DNA of 32,000 nucleotides from Nonlabens ponticola (GCF_003966335.1 NZ_CP034549.1:2100001-2132000), one strand, 5' to 3'; counted from the stretch's first letter, positions 3 to 29,949 are shown. Numbers and translations: made by a program. The notes: generated by a model not told the origin, from the letters alone.

Positions 3-1361
3 CGCAAGGGTCTAGCCGCAGGAATGGACATCGACACCTTTGCACCACGCTTGTCATTCTTTTGGGCTATAGGCATGAATCACTTTATGGAAATTGCCAA
101 GATGCGCGCAGCACGCATGCTGTGGGCAAAAATGATCAAGCAATTCAATCCTAAAAATCCCAAATCGCTGGCATTACGCACGCATTGCCAGACATCAGGC
201 TGGTCTCTGGCAGAACAAGATCCGTTCAACAACGTTGCGCGAACAACTATCGAGGCTGCCGCTGCCGCATTTGGTGGTACGCAGAGTTTGCATACCAATG
301 CCCTTGACGAGGCCATTGCCTTGCCTACAGATTTCAGCGCGCGTATCGCTAGGAACACGCAGATATATCTGCAGGAAGAGACTGGAATTACTAACACGGT
401 CGATCCTTGGGCTGGCTCCTATTATGTTGAATCGCTTACCGATCAAATCGCTCACAAATCCTGGGAACTTATACAAGAAGTTGAGAAATTAGGCGGAATG
501 ACCAAGGCCATTGAGGCTGGCATTCCTAAAATGCGTATAGAAGAAGCAGCCGCCAAAAAACAGGCACGTATTGATTCAAATCAGGACGTGATTGTTGGCG
601 TCAACAAATATCCTAGTCCAGACGAGGATCACATAGACACCCTTGAGGTGGACAACGCTGCCGTGCGCGCAGATCAAATCAACCGCCTAGAAAAGATCAA
701 GGCAGAACGTGACAACGATAAAGTCAATGCAGCACTGGACGCTTTAACGGCACGCGCAAAGACTGGCGATGGCAATTTGCTGGAACTAGCCGTTACCGCT
801 GCAAAGGAACGCGCCACTTTAGGTGAAATTTCAGATGCTTTGGAAAAGGAATTCGGTCGCTATCGTGCACAGATCAAGAGTGTTCAAGGTGTTTATAAAA
901 AAGAGATTATGGATGATTCCGCTTTCGCGAAAGCGCAACAATTAGCAGACGAGTTTGCAAAAAAAGAAGGTCGTCGTCCACGCATCATGATCGCAAAAAT
1001 GGGTCAAGACGGTCACGACCGTGGTGCCAAAGTAGTCGCAACAGGCTATGCAGACGTAGGATTTGACGTGGACATAGGACCACTATTCCAAACACCAGCC
1101 GAAGCAGCCAAACAAGCCGTGGAAAATGATGTGCATGTTCTAGGTGTTTCCTCACTTGCGGCAGGTCACAAAACACTTGTACCACAAGTCATGGCAGAGC
1201 TCAAGAAGTATGGCCGCGACGACATCATGATTATAGTTGGCGGCGTGATACCGCGAAAAGACTATGAATTCCTATTTGAATGCGGCGTGGCAGCAGTCTT
1301 TGGCCCTGGTACTAAGATCAGTGATGCGGCAATTGATATATTGACGTTGCTGGAAGCCTAG
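3..1361 (+). CDS. scpA: Methylmalonyl-CoA mutase, C-terminal part (5' end lies upstream of the window)
   Basis: The frame is open from nt 3 to the window edge, so the ATG at 24 is internal. The C-terminal B12-binding domain carries the DxHxxG motif ([13 protein letters not shown]). [12 protein letters not shown] and VGGVIP are typical of the MCM large subunit. Confidence 0.9.
920..935. repeat. Iterated palindrome copy 1 (CGCTTTCGCGAAAGCG)
   Basis: Perfect 16-bp palindrome inside the MCM gene, read as S-AFAKA-Q. The 22 nt TTCCGCTTTCGCGAAAGCGCAA are identical to copy 5. Confidence 0.95.
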
Positions 1362-1424
1362 AATTATGTTGCTGTAACATATCAGCTTTTTTCCAGTCAT
1401 CTAACAGAACCCAAACCACAAAAG

Positions 1425-2858
1425 ATGTATCGCTCGATCATAGTTTTTCTCTCATTATTTATCAGTATAACTTCAGGCGCACAGCAATTAGAGTTAGCGC
1501 CTTATGAGTTTACGTCAAGATCAGGTGACACCATAAATGCACAGTTAGGATCATTTAAAGTTCCATTAGATAGAGCTAGCGCTACTTCTACGGATTCAAT
1601 CGACATAAGATTTGTCAGGTTTAAGAGCACGAATCCTAATCCACAGGCACCCATTGTATATCTAGCTGGTGGACCTGGCGGTGCTGGAACAGGCGCGGCA
1701 TCGGGTAATCGCTTTGAGCTTTTCATGAAATTGCGTGAGGTTGCAGATGTCATTGCCTATGATCAACGTGGTACTGGATTATCTTATCAGCCACCTGTTT
1801 GCCCTTATGACATAGCGTTTGAAACTGATCGTGCGATTGATCGCAAAGAATATGCCGATAGAACCACAGCAGGATTGAAAAAATGCATTGAGTTTTGGGA
1901 AGAAGAAAATGTCAATCCTATGGCATATAACACGAGCGAAAACGCTCAGGACATAGATGACCTTAGAAAAATACTAGGCGCTGATAAATTATCACTTTGG
2001 GGAATAAGCTATGGATCACATCTCGCCTTTGAATACATAAGACTGTTTAATGATCAGGTCGATAAGGTTGTGCTTGCAAGTCTAGAAGGCCCCAATCAAA
2101 CACTGAAATTACCAGTAAATCAAGATCAATTTCTTCAAAATATTATCGACCGCGCTGCAGACAATTATGGCACTGATCGAAAGTATCCTGATTTACAAAT
2201 GAAAATCAATTCGGTTCATGAGCGATTAAAGGATAGTCCAGTTACGGTTTCTTACAAGGATCGAAGAAATGAAGATCAAACCGTTACGTTTTCAAATTTT
2301 GAGCTGCAAACCATAATCAGTACGTTCTATTTGAAAAATCCAGGTGATTCTAAGGTGATACCGCAACTTTATTCACAGATGTATGAGGGCGATTTTACTG
2401 GTGTCGCATCATGGATAACTATTTTTAAAAGGTATTTATTCTCGCGTATGGACGTCATGTCAACGATGATGGATTTACGTGGTGGCGCCACTTTGGAAAG
2501 GCTTGAAAAAATTGAAAAACAGATCCCAACAACCATTCTTGGTGGCAATGTAAATTTTGTGCTCTACGAGTGGCAACGTGATCTAGGAATTGAACCACTG
2601 CCTAATGCGTTTAGAACACTACCCAATAATAACGTGAATGCACTTTTACTGTCCGGCACGATGGATGGCCGCACGTATGTAAATAGCGCCAAAGAAATAG
2701 CTGCAAGTTTCAATAAGGGAACGCACGTCATCCTTGAAAATGCTGGTCACGATTTGTTTATGCAGGATCCACTAGTATCTGATTTGGTGATAGACTTCTT
2801 TAAAGGTATTAAACCTGTTAGCACGTATTTCACTTTACCTGTGGTGGCTTTTGAGTAA
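1425..2858 (+). CDS. Secreted alpha/beta hydrolase, prolyl/tripeptidyl aminopeptidase-like (S33-type)
   Basis: N-terminal signal peptide (MYRSIIVFLSLFISITSGAQ). GGPGG oxyanion-type motif, GxSxG nucleophile elbow (GISYGS), C-terminal NAGHD histidine region. Confidence 0.7.
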   Translation: MYRSIIVFLSLFISITSGAQQLELAPYEFTSRSGDTINAQLGSFKVPLDRASATSTDSIDIRFVRFKSTNPNPQAPIVYLAGGPGGAGTGAASGNRFELFMKLREVADVIAYDQRGTGLSYQPPVCPYDIAFETDRAIDRKEYADRTTAGLKKCIEFWEEENVNPMAYNTSENAQDIDDLRKILGADKLSLWGISYGSHLAFEYIRLFNDQVDKVVLASLEGPNQTLKLPVNQDQFLQNIIDRAADNYGTDRKYPDLQMKINSVHERLKDSPVTVSYKDRRNEDQTVTFSNFELQTIISTFYLKNPGDSKVIPQLYSQMYEGDFTGVASWITIFKRYLFSRMDVMSTMMDLRGGATLERLEKIEKQIPTTILGGNVNFVLYEWQRDLGIEPLPNAFRTLPNNNVNALLLSGTMDGRTYVNSAKEIAASFNKGTHVILENAGHDLFMQDPLVSDLVIDFFKGIKPVSTYFTLPVVAFE

Positions 2859-2864
2859 GTTTTA

Positions 2865-3656
2865 TTAATTTTTGTTTCTTCTCTCTCGTCTTTCCTGGCG
2901 TTCTTTATTACGCTTATAAAAATAGATTCTGCGCCTTTCTTTGACGGTTAGGTCGTTGGAGTCTTGCTTTAATAATTCCTGCATTTCAGCTACCTCTGAT
3001 TTTGAAATGCTTTTCTCATTGCGCATGCTGGGATTGTATCTTACACCTAAAGCAAAACTGAGATAATTACCATTATCAAAATCATCACCTAGTGCATCGG
3101 CTGTACTAATATTGTAAGAAACAAGCTCATAACTAGGGCTTACAAATACAGAAATATCCTTATTGAATGAGTAATCAATACTTGATGTAAATCTCAAGAC
3201 ATTACCACTGTCTCTAAAGCGTCCAGATCCCTGATCAAAGTTTTGTCTATTTTTATTCTGGCTATATCCGTAACCTATGTCTGCGGTTGCATTCCACGTC
3301 TCATTTATCCTAAAATCGTACCCTACAAATAGGTAGGCGTTGAATTTTGTGCTGCGATCAAACTCACCAATAACATTCGTGTCTTGCACATCAAAATAGT
3401 CCAAGCTTAATGCACCACCTACATAAATATCATCATATACCTTAAATGCCAATCGCGAACCAAAACCATAGCCAAATTCAAGTCCATTGCCTATAAAATT
3501 GTCACCTGAAGGAACCGTACGCTGCATGTGTAAATCAAACATAAAGGCGCGTTCTAGGACTTCATCCTTATCGTTAGCTATAATGGACTGCCCTTGACAA
3601 AAAGAATAGCCAGTAACAAGCATCAAAAAAACCAAACTTTTAATAATTGATCTCAT
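2865..3656 (-). CDS. Outer-membrane beta-barrel (porin-family-like) protein with a basic C-terminal extension
   Basis: Signal peptide, followed by alternating aromatic/glycine-rich strand pattern (YGFGSRLAF, VGYDFRI, IGYGYSQ, LGVRYNP). The last ~55 aa are helical and charged (KERRRIYFYKRNKERQERRERRNKN). Overlaps the upstream lipoprotein gene by 17 nt. Confidence 0.6.
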   Translation of the reverse strand: MRSIIKSLVFLMLVTGYSFCQGQSIIANDKDEVLERAFMFDLHMQRTVPSGDNFIGNGLEFGYGFGSRLAFKVYDDIYVGGALSLDYFDVQDTNVIGEFDRSTKFNAYLFVGYDFRINETWNATADIGYGYSQNKNRQNFDQGSGRFRDSGNVLRFTSSIDYSFNKDISVFVSPSYELVSYNISTADALGDDFDNGNYLSFALGVRYNPSMRNEKSISKSEVAEMQELLKQDSNDLTVKERRRIYFYKRNKERQERRERRNKN

Positions 3657-4347
3657 AGCGCTCTTCTGGATTATTTACGGGAAATTCTTGAGTGATATCG
3701 TTGCCTTCGGTATCCGTGTAGTCAATACTAATAATTGATGGAAAGAAAGCTAGTAGCTGTGTGCTCTCATCTGAGTTTTCAGCGTTGATGGTAACTCGTG
3801 ACTCATCGCTAAATTCACAAAATTCATCTATGACAAATTCATCGTTGATATAAAATTCATTGCAAAAAGTGGCAAAGTAATTTAGTCTAACTTCGATAGG
3901 ATCTGTTGTACCGCTCACATTCTCAAAGTCAATGATAATTTGTGAAACTTTTCTTATGACAATTTCCTCAATCTCGAGAGTTAAATCCTCATCAAAGCTT
4001 GTTTCATCAACCTCGATAACACGTACTTCCTCATTGGACATTTCAATAGTGACGTAGTACCTGAAGTTTGTATCGTATAGCGTTAGAAAAGAGACCTCGC
4101 CGTTTGCATCGGTCATTCCTTGACCCAAGAGAAAATCTTCATCAGCTGGCGAGAATTTGGAAATGTTCTGGTTTGAAAAACGAAAATCATTAGTTCTAAA
4201 GGTAGTTAGCTTGACTTTTAGATTGTCCATCGGCGCACCGCTGGCATTGACAACTCTTGTTTTAAAAAATCCACGTTTGTCGTTGTCAAGCCGTGCCTCG
4301 CAAGAAACGAGCAGACTTACCAGAATTAATAATATCAATTTTTTCAT
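3640..4347 (-). CDS. Hypothetical lipoprotein
   Basis: The likely start is the internal ATG at 4347, which gives MKKLILLILVSLLVSCEA, a lipobox with Cys. The 17 residues upstream in the ORF track look non-coding. Acidic, beta-rich body. Probably co-transcribed with 2865..3656. Confidence 0.6.
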   Translation of the reverse strand: MKKLILLILVSLLVSCEARLDNDKRGFFKTRVVNASGAPMDNLKVKLTTFRTNDFRFSNQNISKFSPADEDFLLGQGMTDANGEVSFLTLYDTNFRYYVTIEMSNEEVRVIEVDETSFDEDLTLEIEEIVIRKVSQIIIDFENVSGTTDPIEVRLNYFATFCNEFYINDEFVIDEFCEFSDESRVTINAENSDESTQLLAFFPSIISIDYTDTEGNDITQEFPVNNPEERYEINY

Positions 4348-4477
4348 AGGTTGGATTTGAGGTAAGATGCATAAAGACCTTATAGGATGCGTGTGCAATT
4401 GTTAATTGCTTGATAAATGAGTGCTAACGTTACATTAGAATTGAACGTTCTACCATCAAACCATTCTATCTTTCAGC

Positions 4478-5029
4478 ATGATACGATTCACACTCAGCAT
4501 TTTATTTATCGCTCTTATGTCTTGCAATACCAACACTGCTACCCTATTTGATTTTGAAAAGGGAGCCGATATCTCAAATTGGCAAATCGAGGACGACAGA
4601 GTCATGGGTGGCATTTCTCAAGGAAATTTCGAATTAAACGATGACGGTCATGGTCATTTTCATGGTATTGTCACAGTAGAAAGTAACGGTGGATTTAGTT
4701 CTGTACAGAACAATTCATATGACGTAAATGTTGATCCAAGCAATCATATTAAATTGAGAGTCAAAGGTGATGGACACACTTACCAGCTTAGAGTTAAGGA
4801 TCAGCAAAGCACTCGTCACAGTTATGTAGCCGACTTTGAGACAAGTGGCAACTGGCAAACGGTTGAAATACTACTATCTAGTATGAAACCTACCTATCGA
4901 GGAAGATCTGTTGACCAACCTAATTTTGATAAAAACTATTTGAGCCAAGTAAGAATTATGATAGGCACCAAAAAGAAACAAGAGCCTTTTGATCTCTTGA
5001 TTGACAAGATTGAGTTGGTTACTGAGTAG
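4478..5029 (+). CDS. CIA30 family protein (complex I intermediate-associated protein 30-like domain)
   Basis: Lipoprotein-like leader (FIALMSCN). The DDRVMGGIS ... NGGFSSV pattern is characteristic of the CIA30 domain. Confidence 0.65.
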   Translation: MIRFTLSILFIALMSCNTNTATLFDFEKGADISNWQIEDDRVMGGISQGNFELNDDGHGHFHGIVTVESNGGFSSVQNNSYDVNVDPSNHIKLRVKGDGHTYQLRVKDQQSTRHSYVADFETSGNWQTVEILLSSMKPTYRGRSVDQPNFDKNYLSQVRIMIGTKKKQEPFDLLIDKIELVTE

Positions 5030-5035
5030 AATTAG

Positions 5036-5779
5036 CTATTCTTTTGGCTCTATAGCTTTCATCATATCCAGCGCAAGAAAACTAGTATCCTTGTTGTAAT
5101 ACCAATGGCGATATGCTGGAATTTTGATATCGTCAATTATTTCTTCCCTAGAAAGTAATATATACTCACCCGACTGTGGATCAATCGCACCATCTTCTTT
5201 TGTCTTAAAAAATTGATAGGCCTTGAGCTTGTAGCTTTCTGGATCAAAATAGAAAAACCAGACATCGCTACCGACTTCTGGGTCATAAGTGACTTTGATC
5301 TTCAAGTAATCCGAACCCCATTGGGTCACCTCTTCTACTTCTTCGTGAACCATCGTGCCTTGATCCTTGAGTTTCATAGGCAGTCCATATAGATAAGTGT
5401 AATAGTCGCGCATGAAATAACCACGATCGATCCTGTCTTGATCTGGACTTGAAACCAGCTCGCCGTTGTTTCTGTAAATTACTTTCTCTGGCGTGACCAG
5501 GTATTGCTGCGATACTGTATCCACCATACTGGTGAGTATGAAACGCTCTTTAGGCAAATTAATATCTACGTGGCTCAGCCTTTCTGGTCGATCTGGCATG
5601 CGCATGAGGACTTCAAACTCACCTTGAAACGTGGGCCAGCTGTTGCTAGGATCGTGATACTGTATGGATTTGCCGATGATTTCTTGTGCAGTGAGCTGTT
5701 GGGATTCCGCCACTTCGACTTGGCTCAGTGCAGGTTTCGCGAAAGCAAAAACCAAAACAACCATCATTACATATTTCAT
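5036..5779 (-). CDS. Hypothetical secreted protein
   Basis: A start at MKYVMMVVLVFAFAKPALSQ (ATG at 5779) gives a clean signal peptide. The ORF track start at 5803 is also possible. I recognise no catalytic motif. Confidence 0.55.
   Translation of the reverse strand: MKYVMMVVLVFAFAKPALSQVEVAESQQLTAQEIIGKSIQYHDPSNSWPTFQGEFEVLMRMPDRPERLSHVDINLPKERFILTSMVDTVSQQYLVTPEKVIYRNNGELVSSPDQDRIDRGYFMRDYYTYLYGLPMKLKDQGTMVHEEVEEVTQWGSDYLKIKVTYDPEVGSDVWFFYFDPESYKLKAYQFFKTKEDGAIDPQSGEYILLSREEIIDDIKIPAYRHWYYNKDTSFLALDMMKAIEPKE
5733..5746. repeat. Iterated palindrome copy 2, 13/14 variant (GGTTTCGCGAAAGC)
   Basis: Inside the signal peptide of the minus-strand gene 5036..5779, read as AFAKP. Confidence 0.8.
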
Positions 5780-5842
5780 AATACGGGAATTAAAAAATGC
5801 CATCAGAAACCTGATAGCATTGTAAAAATAAGTGGTTTGTAA

Positions 5843-6193: not shown

Positions 6194-6205
6194 AGCTGTT
6201 TTCTT

Positions 6206-6213: not shown

Positions 6214-6215
6214 TG

Positions 6216-8479: not shown

Positions 8480-8501
8480 TTACGCTTTCGCGAAAGCGTA
8501 A
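8480..8501. repeat. Iterated palindrome copy 3, extended 22-bp perfect form (TTACGCTTTCGCGAAAGCGTAA)
   Basis: Intergenic, 10 nt after the serC stop. Confidence 0.95.
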
Positions 8502-9189: not shown

Positions 9190-9192
9190 AAC

Positions 9193-11792: not shown

Positions 11793-11806
11793 GCTTTCGC
11801 GAAAGC
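11793..11806. repeat. Iterated palindrome copy 4 (GCTTTCGCGAAAGC, flanks GTTA / GTAAC)
   Basis: Intergenic, 31 nt after the stop of the beta-lactamase-family gene. The right flank matches copy 3, and the left arm lacks one C. Confidence 0.95.
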
Positions 11807-13544: not shown

Positions 13545-13618
13545 GGTCGCGTAGCTCAGCTGGATAGAGCATCTGCCTTCTAAGCAGACGGTCACAGGTT
13601 CGAATCCTGTCGCGATCA
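13545..13618 (+). tRNA. tRNA-Arg (anticodon UCU)
   Basis: Hand-folded 74-nt cloverleaf. Acceptor GGTCGCG/CGCGATC (one G-U pair), D stem GCTC/GAGC, anticodon stem TCTGC/GCAGA with loop CTTCTAA, T stem ACAGG/CCTGT with TTCGAAT loop, discriminator A. No encoded CCA. Confidence 0.95.
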
Positions 13619-13630
13619 CGACACTCAATC

Positions 13631-13665
13631 AACCATGCTCAAAATGAGCATGGTTTTGTTTTTTT
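13631..13665 (+). terminator. Rho-independent terminator of tRNA-Arg
   Basis: AACCATGCTCA / TGAGCATGGTT 11-bp inverted repeat followed by TTGTTTTTTT. Confidence 0.75.
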
Positions 13666-13748
13666 CAGGCATGTCAAAAGCCATAGCTTATGTAAGTGCA
13701 TGAAAAGAATAAAACTAAACGCGACCAAAGGAGCGGCTGGGTTGATTT

Positions 13749-13808
13749 TTTGCAACATTGAGTTCTCTTGGGATCTTGTGAATAATCCTGTCGCGATCAC
13801 GACACTCA
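13749..13808 (+). repeat. Degenerate copy A of the tRNA-Arg 3' end
   Basis: 13784-13808 is identical over 25 nt to 13603-13627: the T-loop 3' part, acceptor 3' strand, and 9 nt beyond the discriminator base (the tRNA ends at 13618). The T-loop region upstream is recognisable but carries indels. Confidence 0.8.
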
Positions 13809-13834
13809 CAACTGCGTTGTGATTTAAATAAGAA

Positions 13835-13874
13835 AAATCCAACAAGCAATAAGCTTGATTGGATTTTTTGTTTT
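13835..13874 (+). terminator. Terminator-like hairpin after repeat copy A
   Basis: AAATCCAACAAGC / GCTTGATTGGATTT stem (one bulge) followed by TTTTTGTTTT. Confidence 0.55.
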
Positions 13875-13909
13875 AAAGCACCTAGGCTTCATAAGCCTGG
13901 GCAGTTGTA

Positions 13910-13961
13910 TTTGCAACATTGAGCTCTATCAGGATCTTGCGAATAATCCTGTCGCGAGCAC
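13910..13961 (+). repeat. Degenerate copy B of the tRNA-Arg 3' end
   Basis: 52 nt, aligned by hand to copy A (13749-13800) with 6 mismatches. Shares AATCCTGTCGCGA with the tRNA 3' end, then diverges. Confidence 0.7.
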
Positions 13962-16884: not shown

Positions 16885-19338
16885 ATGTTTAAATATTCTT
16901 TGATTGTTTTATTGATTTTTATGTGTTCCGCTTTCGCGAAAGCGCAATCACCACAGTCTACTCAACAAATCAAGAGAAAAACCTACAAGGCAACAAGAGT
17001 CGATGACGCGCCTACCATCGACGGTAAGCCCTTTGAAGAATTTTGGGATGCTATACCGCGAGGTGGGAATTTTGTTATGGTGGAGCCTACAAACGGCCAG
17101 CCAGAACGAGACACGCACCGCACGGAATTTAAGATCGCATACGACGATAATGCGTTGTACGTCGCTGGTTACCTGTACGATAGCGATCCTTCACAAATAT
17201 TTAGACAGTTCTCACAGCGTGATGAGATTTTTGCCCAAGCAGACCTATTCGGTTTCTTTGTCAATACTTATAACAATCAGATCAACCAAACCCGATTTTT
17301 TGCCACTAGCGCCAATGCATTGGGTGATGCCGTTTCAGAAAACGGTCGTGAGGATTTTAGCTTCAACGTGGTATTTCAATCAGAGACGTCCATCGATGAG
17401 CAAGGATGGTTTGTTGAAATGCGCATACCGTATAGAACCTTGCGATTTACAGAAACGCCGGTCCAGGATTGGAGTTTCCAGATATTCCGCAGGATCAGGC
17501 ACCTCAATGAAGACTATTCTTATAATTATATAGATATTACACAAGGTAACAGCTCGCAGTATGACGCGCTACTTACGGGTGTAGAAAACATCAATCCACC
17601 ACTGCGATTGAATCTTTATCCTTTTGCATCGGTAGTATATGACACTTTTGAGGGTGAGTCTACGACAGACTTTGCTGCTGGTATGGACTTGAAATATGGT
17701 ATCAACGACGCCTTCACACTAGATGCTACTTTGATTCCAGATTTTAGCCAGGTTGCATTTGATCAGGTACAATTAAACTTAGGTCCTTTTGAACAGCTCT
17801 TTGGAGAAAATCGAGCCTTCTTTGCAGAAGGTACTGACCTTTTTCAAAAAGGTGATATCTTCTTCTCACGTCGCATAGGTCAGACGCCATCTGGTTTTAG
17901 AAACATAGATCGTTTTGAAGATGAAGATATCATTGATAATCCAGACAAGAGCCAGCTGCTCAACGCGGTAAAAGTTACTGGTCGCAATCGCAATGGTCTA
18001 GGAATAGGTTTTTTAAATGCCATCACCAGTAAAACTGAGGCAACACTCTTCAATAACGTTACCGAGGAATCAAGAAAGGTAACGACGGAGCCTTTGACTA
18101 ATTACAATGTCCTAGTCCTGGATCAACAATACGGCAGCAACAGCTCAATATCCTATGTTAATGCAAGCACTTGGCGCAGCGGTAATTTTACTGATGCAAA
18201 TGTTACTGCTATAGTTTCTAATCACAATGACAAGGAACTCAGAAATAATTACCGTGGAGAGTTTAAAGTAAGTAATCGATTTACACCTGATGGTGGCGTA
18301 GTTGGCTTCAGCACTGAGGCTCGATGGAGACAGACAAGCGGTAACTGGCGTGGTAGAGTGGATCATTTTTTCCAGGATAAAAACTGGGATCCTAATGATC
18401 TGGGTAGAAACTTTAGAAATAACTTTCATCAAGTAAATGGTGAGATACAATTCAATCAATTTACACCAGTTGGCGCATTCAATAGTTACAGCATCGAGCT
18501 GCGCGGCAGCCACAGACGATCTGCAGATCCTGATTTTCACATACGTAGTAATGCTAGAGTTGCAGCGAGATTCCGCACCAGAGAACGCAATTCATTTGGT
18601 GCAGACGTTGGCGCCAGCACGCGCAATTTGAATAGGTTTGAATCAAGAATTGATGGACTCAATGTGAGATATGCTCCTAATGTAAATTCTGGAGCGTTTA
18701 TCTCTACAGACTACCGCAAGAAATTTGCGATTGATATACGTGCTGGATACTTTGAACTATTTGGAGATCCAGAAGTTGGTTACAATTACAACATTGCTCC
18801 TAGATATCGATTCTCTGATAAATTTATCTTGATCTATAGATTTGATTGGGGTAAAAACGATCAACGCATTAGTTATGTGACGCTTACTGATGATGGTGAA
18901 ACTTCAATCTTGAGTAGACGCGACACGCATACAGTAGAAAATAGTGTATCTGGGACATTCAATTTTGATAACAGGCGAGCATTGAGTTTATCTTTTAGAA
19001 ATTTCTGGTCTAGAGCTAAATTCTCTAGAGATTTTGAGGAATTGCAAAGCGATGGACGTACCATACCATCAGACTTTGAACTAGAAGAAGGTGACAATCC
19101 CGATGCTAACTTTAATGTATGGAACCTTGATCTTGCCTACCGTTGGCGATTTGCACCTGGTAGCGAGGCAACACTACTGTACCGTAATAATATTTTCAAT
19201 TTTGACAATCAGGGACGCATAGCATTTGAAGATAGTTTGTCAGATCTGTTTGATCAATCTATTCGTCATAATCTATCACTGCGTGTGAGTTACTTCTTTG
19301 ATGTAAACCGCGCAGTCAATTGGTTTAAATCTGCTTAA
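16885..19338 (+). CDS. Large outer-membrane protein, carbohydrate-binding family 9-like N-terminal domain plus DUF5916-like beta-barrel
   Basis: Signal peptide. N-terminal DDAPTIDGK...FW motif typical of CBM9-like domains. Long beta-rich C-terminal region ending in an aromatic-rich segment. 817 aa, as in flavobacterial DUF5916 proteins. Confidence 0.6.
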   Translation: MFKYSLIVLLIFMCSAFAKAQSPQSTQQIKRKTYKATRVDDAPTIDGKPFEEFWDAIPRGGNFVMVEPTNGQPERDTHRTEFKIAYDDNALYVAGYLYDSDPSQIFRQFSQRDEIFAQADLFGFFVNTYNNQINQTRFFATSANALGDAVSENGREDFSFNVVFQSETSIDEQGWFVEMRIPYRTLRFTETPVQDWSFQIFRRIRHLNEDYSYNYIDITQGNSSQYDALLTGVENINPPLRLNLYPFASVVYDTFEGESTTDFAAGMDLKYGINDAFTLDATLIPDFSQVAFDQVQLNLGPFEQLFGENRAFFAEGTDLFQKGDIFFSRRIGQTPSGFRNIDRFEDEDIIDNPDKSQLLNAVKVTGRNRNGLGIGFLNAITSKTEATLFNNVTEESRKVTTEPLTNYNVLVLDQQYGSNSSISYVNASTWRSGNFTDANVTAIVSNHNDKELRNNYRGEFKVSNRFTPDGGVVGFSTEARWRQTSGNWRGRVDHFFQDKNWDPNDLGRNFRNNFHQVNGEIQFNQFTPVGAFNSYSIELRGSHRRSADPDFHIRSNARVAARFRTRERNSFGADVGASTRNLNRFESRIDGLNVRYAPNVNSGAFISTDYRKKFAIDIRAGYFELFGDPEVGYNYNIAPRYRFSDKFILIYRFDWGKNDQRISYVTLTDDGETSILSRRDTHTVENSVSGTFNFDNRRALSLSFRNFWSRAKFSRDFEELQSDGRTIPSDFELEEGDNPDANFNVWNLDLAYRWRFAPGSEATLLYRNNIFNFDNQGRIAFEDSLSDLFDQSIRHNLSLRVSYFFDVNRAVNWFKSA
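16929..16944. repeat. Iterated palindrome copy 5 (CGCTTTCGCGAAAGCG)
   Basis: Inside the signal peptide of the 16885 gene, read as S-AFAKA-Q. Confidence 0.95.
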
Positions 19339-20440: not shown

Positions 20441-21208
20441 GTGAAAAAGGCTGAGCTCAAGGAATTTTTAGATGAGAAAGTGCTCATTTACAATAATCCA
20501 GACTTCATACCGCACGACCCTATCCAGATACCGCATCAATTCTCATCGCCCGATGACATTGAAATTTCTGGTTTCTTGATCGCCACCATCGCTTGGGGCA
20601 ACAGGAAATCCATTATCAATAATGGTAACAAACTCATGCAGTTGATGGATCACGCACCTGCAGATTTTATTCGCAATTTTGAGCGTCAGGATTTAGAACG
20701 TTTTGACGGTTTTGTCCATCGCACGTTCAATGCAGACGATGCTAGAACCTTTATGCTAGCGTTACAGGACATTGAGCGTGAAGATGATGGACTCGAGTCA
20801 GCTTTCGCGAAAGCTTACAAATTATCCAGCAACCTGCAAGAAGGAATTTCAAAGTTTAAACAACGATTCTTCAACATAGAGCATTTACCGCGCACCCAAA
20901 AACACGTGAGCGACCCGATGAAAAACAGCAGTGCCAAAAGAATAAATATGTTCCTGCGCTGGATGGTCAGGAAAGATAATGCTGGAGTAGATTTTGGGAT
21001 ATGGAATTCTATTCCTGCCAGCGCTTTATCGTTGCCACTCGACGTACACACGGGTAATATTTCTCGAAAATTAAAACTGCTTAAACGCAAACAAAACGAC
21101 GGTAAGGCAGTCGCAGAGCTAGATAGCGCATTGCGCAAGCTGGATCCAGAAGATCCTGTGAAATATGATTTTGCGCTTTTTGGCCTAGGTGCATTTAAAG
21201 ATTTGTAG
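20441..21208 (+). CDS. TIGR02757 (DUF2400) family protein
   Basis: GTG start. DPIQIPHQF...DIEISGFLIATIAWGNRKSI and KRINMFLRWMVR segments resemble the TIGR02757 family. Confidence 0.55.
   Translation: MKKAELKEFLDEKVLIYNNPDFIPHDPIQIPHQFSSPDDIEISGFLIATIAWGNRKSIINNGNKLMQLMDHAPADFIRNFERQDLERFDGFVHRTFNADDARTFMLALQDIEREDDGLESAFAKAYKLSSNLQEGISKFKQRFFNIEHLPRTQKHVSDPMKNSSAKRINMFLRWMVRKDNAGVDFGIWNSIPASALSLPLDVHTGNISRKLKLLKRKQNDGKAVAELDSALRKLDPEDPVKYDFALFGLGAFKDL
20800..20815. repeat. Iterated palindrome copy 6 (AGCTTTCGCGAAAGCT)
   Basis: Inside the TIGR02757-like gene, read as S-AFAKA-Y. Confidence 0.95.
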
Positions 21209-25681: not shown

Positions 25682-26030
25682 TCAAACAGACGGCAAACTA
25701 TTAGCGCTACTCGCCTATGCTAGTGCTCTATTTTTATACTTGCATCTAGTCATATTCCTGGCGTTTTTAGGAACCTTCATCTTGTTAAACATGGGAAGAA
25801 ATCGAGAGTTTGTAGCCTTTCATCACAGGCAAATGTTTGGGATAGGGCTTATCGCAATTCTTGTAAACTCATTGGCAAACGTGGTTCCCAATGGCTGGAT
25901 TGCATTATTATTTATCACAGGAGTCGTCATGATCGCCGCCATAGGTTTTCTAGCCGCAATAAAAAATCTTAAAACACCACTACCCTACATCGGTGAGAAA
26001 TTCCAACAGTGGTTTAAATTTATTCAATGA
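25674..26030 (+). CDS. Small membrane protein, DUF4870-like
   Basis: Three hydrophobic helices. KLLALLAYASALF ... EFVAFHHRQMFG pattern. Overlaps the previous gene by 8 nt. Confidence 0.45.
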   Translation: MTNQTDGKLLALLAYASALFLYLHLVIFLAFLGTFILLNMGRNREFVAFHHRQMFGIGLIAILVNSLANVVPNGWIALLFITGVVMIAAIGFLAAIKNLKTPLPYIGEKFQQWFKFIQ

Positions 26031-26698
26031 GTCTACACAAAGAACTAAGCCTACAATATCGCCTGCGTCCATCAAGCATTGAGAATCCACCATTGCTATT
26101 GCTGGTGCATGGTTACGGTAGTAATGAGGACGATCTATTTTCTTTCGCTCCTTACATGACTGATGAATTGCTGATCGTCTCAGTAAGGGCACCATATGAC
26201 ATGCCGCCACAAGGTGCTGCGTGGTATGCCATTGATTATACAGCTGCTGGTGGGAAATTCAGTGACTTAAATCAGGCTCGTGAGAGTATGCAATTGATCG
26301 AGAAGTTTCTCAATGAATTAAAAGCGCATCATAATTATAATCAAGATAGCGTCAACATACTTGGATTCTCACAAGGAGCAATTTTGTCCTTGGCAATGAG
26401 TCTTAACAACCCAGCATTATTCAAAAATGTTGTGGCCATGAGTGGTTACCTTAATGTTGATCTCGTGCAGGCAATGGATGATGTGGAGTTACGCTTTCGC
26501 GAAAGCAAAATCAAACCCAATTATTTCATATCACACGGTTCCATGGATCAAGTCATACCTGCGGACTGGGCACGACGCACTGCTCCTATTCTCAAGAAAT
26601 TAGAGGTCGATCAGGTTTATAAAGAATATGCCGCTGGTCATGGCGTGGCACCAGACAACTTTGCCGACATGAAATCCTGGCTAGAAGCTAGACTCTAG
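26027..26698 (+). CDS. Alpha/beta hydrolase, phospholipase/carboxylesterase family
   Basis: LLLLVHGYGSNEDD, nucleophile elbow GFSQGA, C-terminal HGSMDQVIP and GHGV histidine region. ATGA overlap with the previous gene. Confidence 0.75.
   Translation: MSLHKELSLQYRLRPSSIENPPLLLLVHGYGSNEDDLFSFAPYMTDELLIVSVRAPYDMPPQGAAWYAIDYTAAGGKFSDLNQARESMQLIEKFLNELKAHHNYNQDSVNILGFSQGAILSLAMSLNNPALFKNVVAMSGYLNVDLVQAMDDVELRFRESKIKPNYFISHGSMDQVIPADWARRTAPILKKLEVDQVYKEYAAGHGVAPDNFADMKSWLEARL
26493..26506. repeat. Iterated palindrome copy 7 (GCTTTCGCGAAAGC)
   Basis: Inside the esterase gene, read in a different frame as L-RFRES-K. The left flank GTTAC matches copy 3. Confidence 0.95.
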
Positions 26699-27198
26699 CG
26701 ATACTTGTCGTAAAGTACCGAATGAAGTGTGGTCAACTCAATCTGGTTGTCCTCGCTTATGTTGTAATTGATTAATAATTCACCCCATTGATAATTATCG
26801 CTATAATTGGCAAGTACCCACTTGTGATTGACAAATTTAGTGTCATTGATTTGAAAGCCACGACCTTGACCAATATAGGGAACTAGAGGATTGCCGCCTT
26901 CTTCTAGGTTAAGGTCCAATAGTTTATCGACCACTTGCTGTTCAATTTGTTGCTGTGTGTATCCTAACTTCTCTAGATAGTCTTGAGCCTCTTGATTACC
27001 AGTGAGACTAAATGTTTTGCCCTGAAGCATGGCGGCGTCCTCTATACTGTCTAATTCGCGTTCTTGTTTGTAGGCTTTGGCTCTTAAACTAGTCACATCC
27101 TTCTCTAGAGCTTCCTGATATTTTCTACCATTGATGTAAAATACGAGCGCAATTAAAGATGCAAAAATGAATAAGTACAGATATAAGTTTCTTCTCAT
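26695..27198 (-). CDS. Hypothetical membrane-anchored protein
   Basis: Single N-terminal TM segment (LYLYLFIFASLIALVFYI), then a coiled-coil-like segment. 4-nt overlap with the upstream MBL gene. Confidence 0.5.
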   Translation of the reverse strand: MRRNLYLYLFIFASLIALVFYINGRKYQEALEKDVTSLRAKAYKQERELDSIEDAAMLQGKTFSLTGNQEAQDYLEKLGYTQQQIEQQVVDKLLDLNLEEGGNPLVPYIGQGRGFQINDTKFVNHKWVLANYSDNYQWGELLINYNISEDNQIELTTLHSVLYDKYR

Positions 27199-27968
27199 GG
27201 ATTTGATTCAATAACAAGGTTGTCATAGGCCAAAAATACATTCTCTGGCAAGCTTTCTTGTACAGTCGCATGAAAACCTAAATGATGACTAATATGTGTA
27301 AAATATGTGCGTGCTGGCTTGAGTTCCTCGATAAGCTCCAGTGCTTCTTCAAAATTTAAGTGCGTGCAGTGTGGTTCTATACGCAGCATATTTATGATAA
27401 GAACATCTAGATTCTTAAGTTTTTCCTTTTCCTCTTCTTCTATGGTTTTGACGTCAGTCATGTAGGCTACATCACCTACTCTAAAACCATGAACCGGTAT
27501 AAAACCATGATCCGCTAGAACTGGTGTGATACTCACTCCTTTGACTTCAACTTTTTCCTTATCAAAAATTCTCACATCGAGATCTGCGACGCCTGGATAT
27601 TTGTTTTCTTCTACAAACATGTAGTTGAAACGTTGCTTAAGCGCCTCGTGAACACGAGTTGTCATGTAACAAGGAATAGCGCCTTGTCTAAAGAAAAAAG
27701 GCCTCAAATCATCAAGACCAGCTGTATGATCTGCATGTTCATGGGTGAAAAGAAGCGCATCAAACGATGTTATCTCGTTGACCAGCATTTGTTGCCTGAA
27801 GTCTGGACCACAATCAATTAGCAGCCTACAATCATCAGTCTCTATCATTGCACTTACACGCAAACGCTTGTCACGTGGGTCATCGCTATGGCATACAGGA
27901 TGATCACTACCTATTACAGGTATTCCTTGTGATGTTCCAGTGCCCAGTATAGTGAGTTTTACTTTCAT
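27195..27968 (-). CDS. MBL-fold metallo-hydrolase
   Basis: HxHxDH motif (THEHADH) and the downstream His/Asp pattern typical of the metallo-beta-lactamase fold (PhnP/GloB-like size). Confidence 0.75.
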   Translation of the reverse strand: MKVKLTILGTGTSQGIPVIGSDHPVCHSDDPRDKRLRVSAMIETDDCRLLIDCGPDFRQQMLVNEITSFDALLFTHEHADHTAGLDDLRPFFFRQGAIPCYMTTRVHEALKQRFNYMFVEENKYPGVADLDVRIFDKEKVEVKGVSITPVLADHGFIPVHGFRVGDVAYMTDVKTIEEEEKEKLKNLDVLIINMLRIEPHCTHLNFEEALELIEELKPARTYFTHISHHLGFHATVQESLPENVFLAYDNLVIESNP

Positions 27969-28018
27969 TAAGTTAGGTTAAAAATATTGATATTATTTCA
28001 TTCGGCTATGAGGTTTGC

Positions 28019-28026
28019 TACCTTTG
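28019..28026 (+). promoter_or_regulatory. Candidate -7 box (TACCTTTG) for the 28052 gene
   Basis: TAnnTTTG match 26 nt upstream of the ATG. Confidence 0.35.
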
Positions 28027-28051
28027 TTAACACATCGATAAAGCACCATGC

Positions 28052-29503
28052 ATGGCTATTACCTTACCAGGAGATAATGAATTTGAAACGGTACCTTCGT
28101 TAAAAAACAAAGCACTACGCATTAATCTCAATAGAAACATCTACGGAACCTTTGCAGAGATAGGCGCCGGACAAGAAACGGTAAGACATTTTTTTAGAGC
28201 TGGTGGCGCTTCTGGGACTATCGCAAAGGCGATGAGCGCCTATGACAAGGACTTTTCTGATGCGGTTTATGGTGTACAAGACGATGGCCGCTACGTGACG
28301 GAATCTCGTTTGCGCAAGATGTTGCGCTATGAAACAGATCTTATAGAAGAACGCATATCTCGAGAGAAACACCCTGAAAAACTATTCTTTACCTATGCAA
28401 ATACCGTTGCAACCATTGATTTTGCTAAAAAATTCTTGGGTCACGGTTGGGTAGGAATTAAGTTTCAGGTCGCGCCAGGTGAAGAATATTCAGAAATTAT
28501 ACTTCACGTACGTTTCAAGGAACGTGATGCACGATTACAGCAAATCACCCTAGGTATTTTGGGAACCAACTTGATCTACGGTGCTTTCTACAAGCATGAC
28601 CAGCCTAAAAAGCTGCTCAAATATTTATATGATCATATTGATAAGGACAAAATTGAGATCGATTTGATCAACTTTGATGGTCCACGATTCAAGAATGTAG
28701 ATAATCGCTTGATGAGCCTGCAATTATTACGCAATGAAATGACTGAGGCCGTCATGTTCGGTCCAGATGGTAATAATATTCTGGCAGCGCGTATTCTTTA
28801 TAAGAAAAACGTATTGGCCTTGCGAGGTAGCTTTAGACCTGTTACCAAGGTAAATATGGACATGTATCGCACTGCCAAAGCAATGTTTATAGAATCGGGA
28901 ACAGTCAAAGAAGATCGATTAGAGACCATTTTTGAAATCACATTAAGTAATCTCAAGGCATCGGGAGAAATTGATGAAGAAGACTTCCTGCACCGTGCAG
29001 AATTATTGGGGTCGCTGGGTCAAACCGTTATGATTTCCAACTTTAAGGAATACTATAGACTGGTAGAATTTTTAAACAACTATACTAAGGAACGTATAGG
29101 TCTCGTGATGGGCGTCAATAATCTTGTAGATGTATTCGATACGCAATATTATACTCATTTAAGTGGAGGTATTCTAGAAGCCTTTGGTAAGTTATTCTTC
29201 AAGAATTTGAGAGTTTATTTATATCCTATGCAGGATCCAGAAACTGGAGAGCTCATTACCAGCGACAACCTCAAGGTTCATCCTCGAATGAAAGAATTGT
29301 ACAAATTCTTTAAATACAATGGCAAAGTCAAGGATATAACTGACTATGACGACAGCATAGGCCATATCTATTCGCGCGAAGTGCTGCGCATGATTGATGA
29401 AGGCGAGGACGGCTGGAGAGAAATGTTACCAGAAGGCATTGCCCGACTTATAGACGAGCAAAACCTCTTTGGTTGTAATGTGACTCAAGACATGGATGCC
29501 TAG
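28052..29503 (+). CDS. Conserved protein of unknown function (483 aa)
   Basis: Long uninterrupted ORF with a promoter-like box. Soluble, with no signal peptide. The N-terminal YGTFAEIGAGQE...AGGASGTIAKAMSAYD segment looks conserved, but I cannot assign a family. Confidence 0.6.
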   Translation: MAITLPGDNEFETVPSLKNKALRINLNRNIYGTFAEIGAGQETVRHFFRAGGASGTIAKAMSAYDKDFSDAVYGVQDDGRYVTESRLRKMLRYETDLIEERISREKHPEKLFFTYANTVATIDFAKKFLGHGWVGIKFQVAPGEEYSEIILHVRFKERDARLQQITLGILGTNLIYGAFYKHDQPKKLLKYLYDHIDKDKIEIDLINFDGPRFKNVDNRLMSLQLLRNEMTEAVMFGPDGNNILAARILYKKNVLALRGSFRPVTKVNMDMYRTAKAMFIESGTVKEDRLETIFEITLSNLKASGEIDEEDFLHRAELLGSLGQTVMISNFKEYYRLVEFLNNYTKERIGLVMGVNNLVDVFDTQYYTHLSGGILEAFGKLFFKNLRVYLYPMQDPETGELITSDNLKVHPRMKELYKFFKYNGKVKDITDYDDSIGHIYSREVLRMIDEGEDGWREMLPEGIARLIDEQNLFGCNVTQDMDA

Positions 29504-29949
29504 AGAATTTGGTCTGCGTGAGCTTTGGTTTTCACCTTAGTAATCACATCTTCTATCACGCCATTCTCATCAATGACAAAGGTCGTGCGGTGGATACCGT
29601 CGTATTCCTTGCCCATAAATTTCTTCGGACCCCAAACTTGGTAGGCATTCAGCAGCTCGTGATCTTCATCAGCTAGTAGATCGTATGGCAATTCATACTT
29701 GTTTTTAAAATTACTCTGGCGTTTAGGACTATCGGCACTTGCTCCTAGTATTTCATATCCGCTTTCGCGAAAGCGTGACACGTTATCTCGCAAATTGCAA
29801 GCCTCTGCAGTGCATCCAGGTGTACTCGCTTTGGGATAGAAGAACAGGACTAACTTCTTACCTTTGAAATCGGATAGAGAAACGGTCTCGCCATCTTGGT
29901 TAGGTATGCTAAATTCTGGTGCTTTATCGCCTGGTTTAAGAGTGGTCAT
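29500..29949 (-). CDS. bcp: Thioredoxin-dependent thiol peroxidase (peroxiredoxin Bcp)
   Basis: FFYPKASTPGCTAEAC active site with peroxidatic and resolving Cys five residues apart. ~150 aa. Confidence 0.85.
   Translation of the reverse strand: MTTLKPGDKAPEFSIPNQDGETVSLSDFKGKKLVLFFYPKASTPGCTAEACNLRDNVSRFRESGYEILGASADSPKRQSNFKNKYELPYDLLADEDHELLNAYQVWGPKKFMGKEYDGIHRTTFVIDENGVIEDVITKVKTKAHADQIL
29760..29775. repeat. Iterated palindrome copy 8 (CGCTTTCGCGAAAGCG)
   Basis: Inside bcp (minus strand), read as S-RFRES-G. Confidence 0.95.

Follow-up and report, generated by a model that had tools for sequence, protein, structure and literature searches.

The exact 14-bp perfect palindrome GCTTTCGCGAAAGC is iterated through a 32-kb window of the Nonlabens ponticola chromosome (the whole stretch of DNA that was analysed) and is a clade-wide feature of two marine flavobacterial genera, Nonlabens and Dokdonia, in which it is maintained at the DNA level. 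The reading favoured here, with a probability of roughly 35%, is that the word serves as a self-DNA tag like USS, DUS and HIP1 and would be read, as a symmetric duplex site, during uptake or recombination. Other bacteria have uptake sequences and HIP1 words; this counterpart of them is apparently undescribed.

Copies in the window

An earlier note on this DNA had claimed seven exact copies and one 13/14 copy, six of them in genes and two intergenic. A recount gave all eight at the same coordinates and with the same split (Table 1), and no further match at ≤2 mismatches was present in the window. The chance figure of about 1e-4 given in that note also stands, an order-0 model predicting that number of exact copies for 32 kb. 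In dinucleotide-preserving shuffles the mean number of matches at ≤2 mismatches was 0.14 and none of the 100 shuffles reached eight.

Table 1 Copies of the word in the 32-kb window of N. ponticola
Position	Match	Location	Reading
921..934	exact	methylmalonyl-CoA mutase gene, linker between mutase and B12-binding domains	AFAKA
5733..5746	13/14, GGTTTCGCGAAAGC	DUF6503 protein signal peptide, minus strand	AFAKP
8484..8497	exact	intergenic, 13 nt past stop codon of serC-like aminotransferase gene	
11793..11806	exact	intergenic, 30 nt past beta-lactamase-family stop codon, upstream of DUF937 gene	
16930..16943	exact	DUF5916/CBM9 protein signal peptide	AFAKA
20801..20814	exact	within DUF2400 (TIGR02757) gene	AFAKA
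26493..26506	exact	within Abhydrolase_2 esterase gene	RFRES
29761..29774	exact	within bcp (peroxiredoxin Q) gene, minus strand	RFRES

Distribution across the clade

Four other, orthologous Nonlabens loci contained 3–7 copies per 20 kb. A scan covering the genomes of 185,579 species was then used as a source of matches, from which 120 blocks were sampled: 83 were from Dokdonia, Nonlabens or uncultured Flavobacteriaceae, with 1.5–1.8 copies per 8 kb, and the remaining taxa gave single matches, mostly in high-GC DNA. On the complete chromosome of Dokdonia sp. R86516 copies are dispersed at 0.88, 1.38, 2.15 and 2.82 Mb. The over-representation seen in the window extends to four more Nonlabens loci and to dispersed blocks from many Nonlabens and Dokdonia genomes. 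The syntenic Bizionia and Mangrovimonas loci (about 69 kb) had no copies, even when three mismatches were allowed. In the clade 98 of 152 copies fell within long ORFs; about 65–75% of copies are inside genes and about 1/4 to 1/3 are intergenic. A figure of about 600–800 sites is an extrapolation, the genome-wide count for N. ponticola being extrapolated from 32 kb, which weighs against the tag reading.

Maintenance at the DNA level

The third reading frame of the word, LSRK, had been noted only in a spurious ORF extension. It is indeed unused in this window, but it holds 18 of the 98 coding copies elsewhere in the clade, and all three frames are used across the clade. Conservation at the protein level was tested through the way in which the peptides are encoded and was not supported: AFAK was word-encoded in 63 of 67 cases, FRES in 28 of 28 and LSRK in 22 of 28, making 113 of the 123 tetrapeptides in the clade. 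The peptides are by-products of the word.

At orthologous sites the word is spelled with identical codons, against a synonymous codon identity of only 0.41–0.54 elsewhere. N. marinus retains all five copies of locus L001, including the same one-mismatch variant, at an overall nucleotide identity of 75%. The copy at 20801 is unchanged in two other Nonlabens species although the residues around it differ, and the esterase copy (CGC TTT CGC GAA AGC) is the same in four Nonlabens species whose proteins are 57–65% identical. The site at 921 also carries the word at the orthologous position in an uncultured relative (79.5% amino-acid identity), and at the 5733 site the Dokdonia orthologue (45% amino-acid identity) has an exact copy in the same place in its signal peptide.

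Other sites differ between lineages. The syntenic Dokdonia locus lacks a copy at the position matching 16930, where in N. ponticola AFAKA gives an A-x-A cleavage-type motif, and near the 20801 site in the same Dokdonia locus the closest copy is intergenic instead, about 400 bp off. The bcp site reads CGT TTT CAA AAG GCA or GCC TTT AAA TCT AAG in outgroups, with no indel, and N. dokdonensis bcp has a decayed copy with two mismatches. In a UvrA-like gene there is a 13/14 match whose sole mismatch affects a proline codon, the proline being conserved in outgroups as well. Comparison of this gene and of BatA with outgroups or sister species revealed no indel at the word, and presence and absence between loci L001 and L002 amount to three substitutions and zero indels. 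The alignment of orthologues bears out a lineage-specific word made by substitution, Bizionia and Mangrovimonas having no copies. The further suggestion that the word was written into tolerant positions and not inserted is right for Bcp but does not cover the esterase copy, which sits in a variable 10–11-codon segment missing from the Bizionia and Mangrovimonas orthologues. Copies are gained and lost by base substitution where proteins tolerate change, namely in signal peptides, linkers, variable loops and gene ends.

Extent of the motif

The motif extends beyond the 14-bp word: a symmetric 16-bp core, CGCTTTCGCGAAAGCG, is preceded by about 20 nt of C-poor, G/T-rich DNA and followed by a mirrored G-poor flank that is A/C-rich, not T-rich; this holds in all frames and in intergenic DNA. 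The flank preferences are weaker than the core, symmetric, and reach to about ±20 nt with low information per position. They are position-specific, with T at −3, −4, −7, −10 and −13 and with C accepted only near −2, −8 and −14. The flank consensus proposed earlier, GTTAC...GTAAC, was correct as regards −1 C/+1 G (83% of copies) and −3 T/+3 A (69%), but position −2 varies by lineage, with a TAC/GTA and a TTC/GAA dialect. A weak extended palindromic consensus, TGATTNC...GNAATCA, could be recognised. Past about ±5 nt the copies share composition only, and within a copy one arm is not complementary to the other.

In the window, a long extension of the palindrome (TAGTTAC...GTAATTA) is confined to the 8484 copy, whose DNA fold had an energy of −13.6 kcal/mol (z −5.8). 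The other five of the six copies folded did not exceed shuffles in stability. All 16 two-mismatch variants were non-palindromic, and this lack of compensatory variants implies that it is the sequence that is read and not a structure. A search of Rfam at every copy returned zero matches. An intrinsic terminator or structured RNA was rejected on the basis of these ordinary folds, the A/C-rich 3′ flank, the lack of covariation and the lack of an Rfam match.

These data also bear on the possibility that the word is the conserved core of a MITE-, REP- or RPE-like mobile element, sometimes inserted in frame, whose flanks have decayed. REP/BIME, MITEs and the Rickettsia palindromic elements are likewise dispersed palindromic repeats, the esterase copy does lie in a lineage-specific extra segment, and both the weak extended palindrome and the excess of exact over near-exact copies could be read in the same way. 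This origin is nevertheless extremely improbable, as an insert of 14 or 16 bp would shift the reading frame, Bcp, the UvrA-like gene, BatA and the L001/L002 pair have no indel, and the majority of copies are in genes and stable at orthologous sites across species and genera. Unlike those elements the word has no conserved element past about 16–28 bp, no terminal repeats and no target duplications. Membership of the REP/BIME/MITE families was rejected in the absence of a long element present as an indel and of an essentially intergenic location (6/8 copies in genes in the window, 98/152 in ORFs in the clade), and RPE-like in-frame insertion because no copy except that of the esterase sits in extra sequence. 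A longer repeat family, which the earlier note had named as a refutation of its claim, is thus not supported, the flanks sharing composition only and gain and loss occurring without indels. The claim itself, of a genome-level DNA word under selection or drive with HIP1- or uptake-like behaviour, is supported by the over-representation, the non-repeat flanks and the DNA-led peptides.

Spacing and near-matches

Gaps between copies in the window measured 2751–5692 bp, in agreement with the dispersal of 2.7–5.7 kb reported earlier, and are more regular than random placement would give (CV 0.25, P ~0.001). Copy density is about 1 per 3–5 kb with even spacing. In the clade none of 50 gaps was shorter than 800 bp, where a Poisson model expects about 28%, and the minimum was near 0.85 kb. 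There is mutual repulsion between copies at short range.

The ratio of exact to one-mismatch copies is about 7:1, and three-mismatch copies are at chance level (17 observed vs ~15 expected). The half-site GCGAAAGC alone is barely enriched (30 observed vs 20 expected), and TCGCGA and CGCG have roughly their expected frequency elsewhere than in the word. By our own calculation the core has an information content of at least 29 bits, when about 12 bits suffice for one site per 4 kb; such a surplus is characteristic of USS/DUS and not of ordinary binding sites. A tag has to be rare in foreign DNA, and so would need such a roughly two-fold excess.

It is possible, though rather unlikely, that the word is instead a binding-site array for a chromosome-organising dimer (a Noc-, SlmA-, ParB- or NAP-like protein, or a condensin loader) acting on the 16-bp palindrome. 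In that case the flanks would be contacted or wrapped to about ±20 bp and the regularly placed sites would serve to organise the nucleoid or to segregate it, with purifying selection keeping each of them. A perfect dyad of 14–16 bp with symmetric, position-specific flank preferences suits a dimer footprint, as do the barely enriched half-site and the lack of compensatory palindromic variants, and the even spacing with its minimum and the conservation at orthologous sites are on the same side. With its ratio of about 7:1 the palindrome looks more like a tight dimer-binding site than like a graded uptake preference. Under a graded drive many intermediates would be expected, so the chance level of three-mismatch copies also counts against a tag. 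The periodic distribution of HIP1 was interpreted as a chromosome-organising array (PMC5861425). The extrapolated sites are, however, exact over 14–16 bp and carry about twice the information needed to locate them, where ordinary architectural sites are degenerate, and the known arrays (parS, NBS, SBS and matS) number tens of sites, not hundreds. The parS/NBS arrays of ParB/Noc were rejected as a class for the word, since its half-site fits TGTTTCAC or TATTTCCC at only 3/8 positions and its density implies hundreds of sites.

A very unlikely alternative is that the word is actively written into DNA by a dedicated, sequence-templated short-patch conversion that would install the 16-bp core at new sites, with neither indels nor homology in the flanks, and perhaps bias about 20 nt around it. 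Such a writer would explain the excess of exact over near-exact copies, precursors that are too rare, and new copies of the type found in BatA, where at least five core positions of the N. marinus copy, and its flanks, differ from the sister sequence. The clustered differences that were observed are not statistically exceptional at the divergences involved, and substitutions accumulating one by one in hypervariable segments, under strong selection or drive, account for these data too.

The word in phages

The two sequenced Nonlabens phages (35.7 kb) have zero copies of the word, which speaks for a tag, and some real phage contigs bear it at host-like density. Neither a purely host-only tag nor a host architectural function predicts such contigs, which therefore count against both the tag and the array. 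One Nonlabens phage avoids CGCG 5-fold (9 vs 44 expected), suggesting that at least some hosts restrict, and presumably methylate, CGCG.

This avoidance, together with the CGCG and TCGCGA in the core, would be in keeping with a functionless, neutral by-product of methylation-linked or very-short-patch-type biased repair that converts near-cognate sites to the word. Exact copies stand far above one-mismatch copies as if near-misses were corrected, and the C-poor 5′ flanks look like a C-to-T mutational footprint. We consider this quite unlikely: near-cognate substrates are expected by chance at only about 0.003 (one mismatch) and 0.06 (two mismatches) per 32 kb and cannot by themselves seed hundreds of copies, TCGCGA and CGCG outside the word are at about expected frequency, even spacing is not expected, the flank preferences are position-specific and not a smooth gradient, and no repair system with 14-bp specificity is known.

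The phages are also relevant to a bidirectional Chi-like signal for recombination and end protection. The word consists of GCTTTCGC and GCGAAAGC overlapping by GC, so each of its strands ends in the sequence of the d(GCGAAAGC) mini-hairpin found in the phage G4 complementary-strand origin and elsewhere, which is extraordinarily stable (Tm 76.5 °C), resists exonucleases and binds SSB poorly (PMC13037366). After a double-strand break to either side of the word, the 3′-ended strand would arrive at this sequence, which makes up the word's 3′ half on both strands. Breakdown of the strand would halt at that point, and RecA would be loaded onto the adjacent G/T-rich 5′ flank. Formation of the hairpin within the word, and a role for it there, are hypothetical. 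RecA prefers GT-rich DNA, and on each strand the C-poor, G/T-rich 20 nt 5′ of the word are on the side that forms the 3′ tail. Like Chi of RecBCD/AddAB, the word occurs about once per 4–5 kb (that of E. coli being similar to the 1 per 4 kb here), is G/T-rich on the prospective 3′-tail strand and is patchy in phages, and even spacing would limit the loss of DNA at any break. The Nonlabens phages that have their own ERF and YqaJ recombination genes lack the word while other phage contigs have host-like density; a similar pattern is reported for Chi in phages, but only one phage lineage underlies the argument. HIP1, too, has been suggested to act in a Chi-like way (bioRxiv 10.1101/2024.09.10.611283). 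This explanation is unlikely nonetheless. Known Chi sites are 5–8 nt, asymmetric, read on a single strand, oriented with replication and mildly over-represented, whereas the word is a palindrome of 14–16 bp; an active 8-nt hairpin should enrich isolated, oriented GCGAAAGC, which was not seen; and nearest-neighbour folding of the copies is unremarkable. Mini-hairpin motifs are isolated at single-strand replication origins, and the word is a duplex palindrome iterated hundreds of times. Membership of the Chi class itself was rejected, as a perfect palindrome cannot be oriented and the half-site alone is not enriched.

Comparison with self-DNA words

HIP1 of cyanobacteria (GCGATCGC) and the word are both perfect palindromes, hugely over-represented within and between genes, with conservation of sites beyond neutral, non-random spacing and a CG-containing centre as a possible methylation target. 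The function of HIP1 was also unexplained for long and is now tied to transformation (PMC5861425; PMC4390886; bioRxiv 10.1101/2024.09.10.611283; 10.64898/2026.06.24.733823): it promotes natural transformation, an effect that depends on methylation, and is proposed to be an uptake or Chi-like signal (bioRxiv 10.1101/2024.09.10.611283; 10.64898/2026.06.24.733823). The word has a different sequence and belongs to a different phylum, Bacteroidota, and is an analogue and not a member of the HIP1 family. Its core is 14–16 bp against 8 bp, with far higher information, and its density is about 5–10 times lower. At the short range covered here copies of the word are regular and repel each other; HIP1 has a periodicity of 10–90 kb. 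The strand-symmetric C-poor/G-poor flanks set the word apart as well. HIP1-type palindromes have sub-sites recognised by orphan methyltransferases, and no cognate methyltransferase is known for the word.

The DUS of Neisseriaceae (12 nt) and the USS of Pasteurellaceae (9-nt core plus flanks) resemble the word in being clade-specific with dialects, over-represented by orders of magnitude within the clade, and present as hundreds of exact copies, which substitutions have produced between genes and at coding positions that tolerate change. In both cases copies are stable at orthologous sites and evenly spaced, with a low-information flank and an information excess of about two-fold. DUS and USS are asymmetric, shorter and 3–4 times denser (about 1 per kb) than the word. 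DUS often occur as close inverted pairs, while close pairs of the word are absent, and the strand-symmetric flanks of the word have no counterpart in known uptake sequences. DUS/USS have an experimentally established uptake bias and receptor, as with ComP for DUS (PMC3868556); for the word both are hypothetical.

A self-DNA tag would operate as follows. During uptake or recombination of DNA, for instance in natural transformation, the duplex site would be recognised by a symmetric, presumably dimeric, protein, and segments carrying the word would be preferentially transmitted or repaired. That bias, alone or with selection, would spread the word and hold its copies exact genome-wide. The even spacing could arise because a second copy near an existing one would add little, and methylation of the central CGCG/TCGCGA may aid recognition, as proposed for HIP1. 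To our knowledge there is no known competence phenotype, receptor or methyltransferase for Nonlabens or Dokdonia, which counts against a tag. A literature search found no report of competence in either genus, and there were no receptor or competence genes within the 32-kb window. Riemerella, which belongs to the order of both genera, is naturally competent with a preference for its own DNA, yet has no known uptake sequence (PMC7965970).

Copies of the word in the window

A scan of the window for the 14-bp perfect palindrome GCTTTCGCGAAAGC (the word) returned the seven exact copies and one 13/14 copy that the earlier note had reported, and gene assignment agreed with that note in placing them in six unrelated coding sequences and at two intergenic sites, the latter immediately past stop codons (see table). 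No further match at ≤2 mismatches was found in the window, nor was any other iterated word of 9–14 nt. The order-0 expectation per 32 kb is 1e-4 exact, 0.003 one-mismatch and 0.06 two-mismatch copies; dinucleotide-preserving shuffles (n = 100) averaged 0.14 matches, and eight were reached in none of them.

Depending on the frame, the word is translated as AFAK, FRES (RFRES) or LSRK. In the AFAK frame it repeatedly gives the A-x-A motif that ends signal peptides, as in the DUF5916 and DUF6503 proteins. Elsewhere in the window a tRNA-Arg(TCT) gene is followed by two direct repeats, both of which terminate in a duplicate of its 3′ end; integrative elements seem to have left stacked att-site scars in the stretch 13545–13961.

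Positions of copies of the word and of other features (start positions for copies; window coordinates unless a locus is named)
Feature	Position or identifier	Sequence or setting
Exact copies	921, 8484, 11793, 16930, 20801, 26493, 29761	GCTTTCGCGAAAGC
13/14 copy	5733	GGTTTCGCGAAAGC
Copy in DUF6503 protein	5733	signal peptide
Copy in DUF5916 protein	16930	signal peptide
Copy in methylmalonyl-CoA mutase		inter-domain linker
Copy in DUF2400 protein		within gene
Copy in Abhydrolase_2 esterase		within gene
Copy in Bcp		within gene
tRNA-Arg(TCT)	13545-13619
Two direct repeats, ~160 nt	13749-13800, 13910-13961	following the tRNA gene
tRNA 3′-end copies	13603-13627, 13784-13808	AATCCTGTCGCGATCACGACACTCA
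tRNA 3′-end copy, degenerate	near 13943-13961
One-mismatch copy in UvrA-like paralogue	L001 6491, L003 6483 (Nonlabens)	GCTTCCGCGAAAGC, gene sense strand
Copy in DUF6503 protein of Dokdonia	L109 3355	signal peptide
Insert in N. dokdonensis, ~3 kb	L004 13316-16073	relative to other Nonlabens
Word-bearing phage loci (IMG/VR)	L215, L240, L243, L251, L131/L180, L206
Word-bearing IMG/VR contigs	3300031224_000073, 3300031223_000064, 3300031211_000072, 3300039191_000376, 3300038696_000259

Distribution and density

The window's Bcp matches Nonlabens ponticola Bcp at 100% identity. Orthologous 20-kb loci from four other Nonlabens genomes hold 3–7 exact copies apiece. The genomes of 185,579 species were then scanned by 8-kb blocks, giving at least 120 matching blocks. 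Among the matches listed, 33 blocks are from Dokdonia, 24 from Nonlabens and 26 from uncultured Flavobacteriaceae, with 1.5–1.8 copies per block at dispersed chromosomal positions; other taxa among these matches have single copies, mostly in high-GC DNA, which is the chance expectation. Syntenic loci of the outgroups Bizionia and Mangrovimonas (~69 kb) contain neither the word, even at three mismatches, nor any other iterated palindrome. The scan and the empty outgroup loci together show that the word is a property of the Nonlabens–Dokdonia clade. In unbiased stretches there is one copy per 2.9–6.8 kb, a density which, extrapolated rather than counted, would amount to several hundred copies per genome.

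Three loci labelled “uncultured Aquimarina” or “uncultured bacterium” (L116, L008 and L053) hold two copies per 8 kb and resemble the clade in GC content and, mostly, in their flanks; they probably belong to it and are mislabelled or unnamed. The insert in the N. dokdonensis locus, which carries a HepT/MNT toxin–antitoxin pair, a DEAD-box helicase and a small ORF, falls within that locus's longest word-free gap (9.7 kb). This single case fits acquired DNA lacking the word.

Conservation as DNA and origin by substitution

The codons of the word are fixed where the surrounding gene has diverged. In the esterase, four Nonlabens species whose proteins are 57–65% identical all have CGC TTT CGC GAA AGC, next to residues that vary, and where residues are conserved their synonymous codon identity is 0.41–0.48; Bcp and DUF2400 follow the same pattern. 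All five copies in the Nonlabens locus L001 are kept in N. marinus, including the same one-mismatch variant, at an overall DNA identity of 75%. Nonlabens and Dokdonia have the DUF6503 signal-peptide copy at matching positions (protein identity 45%), and the mutase-linker site is shared with an uncultured relative. Other sites have moved: the syntenic Dokdonia locus L114, for example, has an intergenic copy beside DUF2400, not one within the gene.

In clade ORFs totalling about 200,000 codons, the word encodes 63 of 67 occurrences of AFAK, all 28 of FRES and 22 of 28 of LSRK, and the tetrapeptides that it does not encode are as numerous as amino-acid composition predicts. These counts and the ortholog codon comparison rule out a protein-level motif; the word is kept as DNA. 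A clear case of compromise between the DNA word and protein constraint is the UvrA-like paralogue, whose one-mismatch copy reads L-P-R-K-R and has been kept by two species of Nonlabens. The site, CCG CTT CCG CGA AAG CGA, uses codons rare for a 40% GC genome and matches the word at 13/14 positions, and its one mismatch affects a proline codon, the proline being conserved in the outgroups as well.

A miniature mobile element is very improbable as the source of the copies. Beyond about ±5 nt from the word they are alike in composition and not in sequence, and the arms are not specifically complementary (6.22 pairs of 19 within a copy vs 6.25 between copies), so that the copies do not form one longer repeat family. 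No length change accompanies the word in Bcp, as the earlier note had remarked, in the UvrA-like gene or in a BatA copy specific to N. marinus, against either outgroups or sister species. The exception is the esterase copy, which lies within a variable segment of 10–11 codons absent from Bizionia and Mangrovimonas; this case is ambiguous, and the missing indels and unshared flanks otherwise rule the mobile element out. A difference in presence between L001 and L002 consists of three substitutions and no indel, in line with gain and loss of the word by substitution. The L001/L002 differences need not be a single multi-nucleotide event, as at 5.2% divergence chance alone would produce clusters of this kind within 20 kb.

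Exactness, spacing and flanks

In an unbiased set (the window with L001, L003 and L004) there are 21 exact, three one-mismatch and two two-mismatch copies, and three-mismatch copies are at chance level. Spacing is even: gap lengths in the window vary with a CV of 0.25 (P about 0.001); those in the N. marinus locus are likewise regular (P about 0.005). Among the matches listed, none of 50 gaps in clade blocks is below 800 bp and three are below 1.5 kb, where a Poisson process would give about 28% and 47%.

The core is followed outwards by a symmetric signature. C at −1 and G at +1 are found in 83–84% of copies, T at −3 and A at +3 in 69%, and T is favoured at −4, −7, −10 and −13. Over ~20 nt the 5′ flank is G/T-rich, with C at 2–9% at most positions (~18% background), and the 3′ flank mirrors it, being G-poor and A/C-rich. 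The signature does not differ between intergenic copies and those in any of the three frames, and orienting copies by the direction of the gene leaves it symmetric; it is therefore not a coding artefact (of signal peptides or codon positions) or a transcriptional one. That the word is a neutral by-product of methylation-linked repair seems quite improbable to us: the depletion of C is of the kind that a C-to-T mutational footprint might leave, but the skew is position-specific, which favours recognition over a pure footprint of this type.

Both strands of the word end in d(GCGAAAGC), a mini-hairpin of extraordinary stability that resists nucleases and is poorly bound by SSB (PMC13037366). Through this hairpin and the GT-rich flank the word could act as a bidirectional Chi-like end-protection signal. 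We consider this unlikely, as the half-site outside the word is barely enriched (30 observed vs 20 expected), leaving the mini-hairpin unsupported as a functional unit. Nearest-neighbour DNA folding is unremarkable for most copies and no copy matches an Rfam family; with the weak enrichment of the half-site, this indicates that the full duplex palindrome is the unit kept. A hairpin or terminator is further rejected by the non-complementary arms and by the two-mismatch variants, of which none of 16 is palindromic.

Restriction and phages

In the Nonlabens and Dokdonia loci, TCGCGA and CGCG occur outside the word about as often as expected, so an NruI-type restriction context was rejected. TTCGAA is 5–10 times rarer than composition predicts (8 vs 91 expected in Nonlabens, 16 vs 78 in Dokdonia) and CATG is halved in the Dokdonia loci; both shortages are probably restriction–modification footprints.

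The Nonlabens phages P12024S (JQ823122) and P12024L (JQ823123), ~35 kb each, have no word at ≤2 mismatches. Each has recombination genes of its own (ERF and YqaJ) and encodes a DNA methyltransferase. P12024S strongly avoids GGCC (0 vs 35 expected), CCGG (2 vs 34) and CGCG (9 vs 44), which suggests that the host restricts all three and methylates its own CGCG, the centre of the word. Several metagenomic phage contigs have 2–3 exact copies per 12–15 kb. Their genes include those for an HK97-type portal, protease, major capsid protein, head–tail adaptors and tape measure, and their copies have the host-like C at −1 and T at −3 with a weaker flank skew (C 12%); they are probably temperate phages of the clade. 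A further IMG/VR locus with three copies (L179) is of doubtful phage origin.

Possible function

The clade-wide results support the suggestion that this is a word at the level of the genome, subject to selection or drive and resembling HIP1 or uptake sequences. Our tentative reading, with a probability of about 0.35, is that the word is a candidate self-DNA tag, a symmetric duplex site that would be read in DNA uptake or recombination. This is favoured by its restriction to one clade with flank dialects, its origin by substitution at protein-tolerated positions, the stability of orthologous sites with some turnover, the even spacing and the low information of the extended flank. The information content favours it too: the core carries at least 29 bits (computed), whereas about 12 bits would specify one site per 4 kb. 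A tag absent from foreign DNA would need this excess, which is present in USS and DUS and absent in ordinary binding sites.

HIP1 sites are likewise conserved and spaced non-randomly (PMC5861425), and HIP1 raises natural transformation in a way that depends on methylation, and it has been proposed as an uptake or Chi-like signal (bioRxiv 10.1101/2024.09.10.611283; 10.64898/2026.06.24.733823). Riemerella, from the order of Nonlabens and Dokdonia, is naturally competent with a preference for its own DNA, and no uptake sequence is known for it (PMC7965970).

Counting against a self-DNA tag are the presence of the word in some phages and the near absence of intermediates, which tight dimer binding fits better than graded preference. 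Known uptake sequences are also asymmetric and denser, and we know of no competence, receptor or methylase in the clade. An array of binding sites for a chromosome-organising protein would accommodate tight binding, and the information excess is foreign to such sites; we judge this unlikely.

Significance

Hyper-abundant genomic words are rare: USS and DUS occur in two proteobacterial families and HIP1, whose function has been debated for 30 years, in cyanobacteria. By sequence and defining features the word does not belong with HIP1, DUS/USS, Chi, REP/MITE or parS. It differs from USS, DUS and HIP1 in being in another phylum, in a core that is far longer, perfectly palindromic and nearly invariant, in the mutual repulsion of its copies and in its strand-symmetric flank signature. 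A literature search found no paper mentioning it, and the N. dokdonensis and D. donghaensis genome papers do not mention it. It is the first clade-specific hyper-abundant genomic word in the Bacteroidota that we can find, and its palindromic core is the longest and most exact of such words known to us.

As an independent example it gives comparative leverage on the function and spread of such words, and it could be a taxonomic marker for metagenome bins. Proteins are shaped by it as well, since their signal peptides, linkers and loops receive AFAK, RFRES or LSRK. Should the word prove to be a tag for uptake or recombination, abundant marine Flavobacteriia would be seen to exchange DNA in a sequence-specific way, genetic tools could exploit the word by adding it to transforming DNA, and metagenomic contigs, prophages and horizontally acquired DNA could be assigned to the clade with the word as marker.
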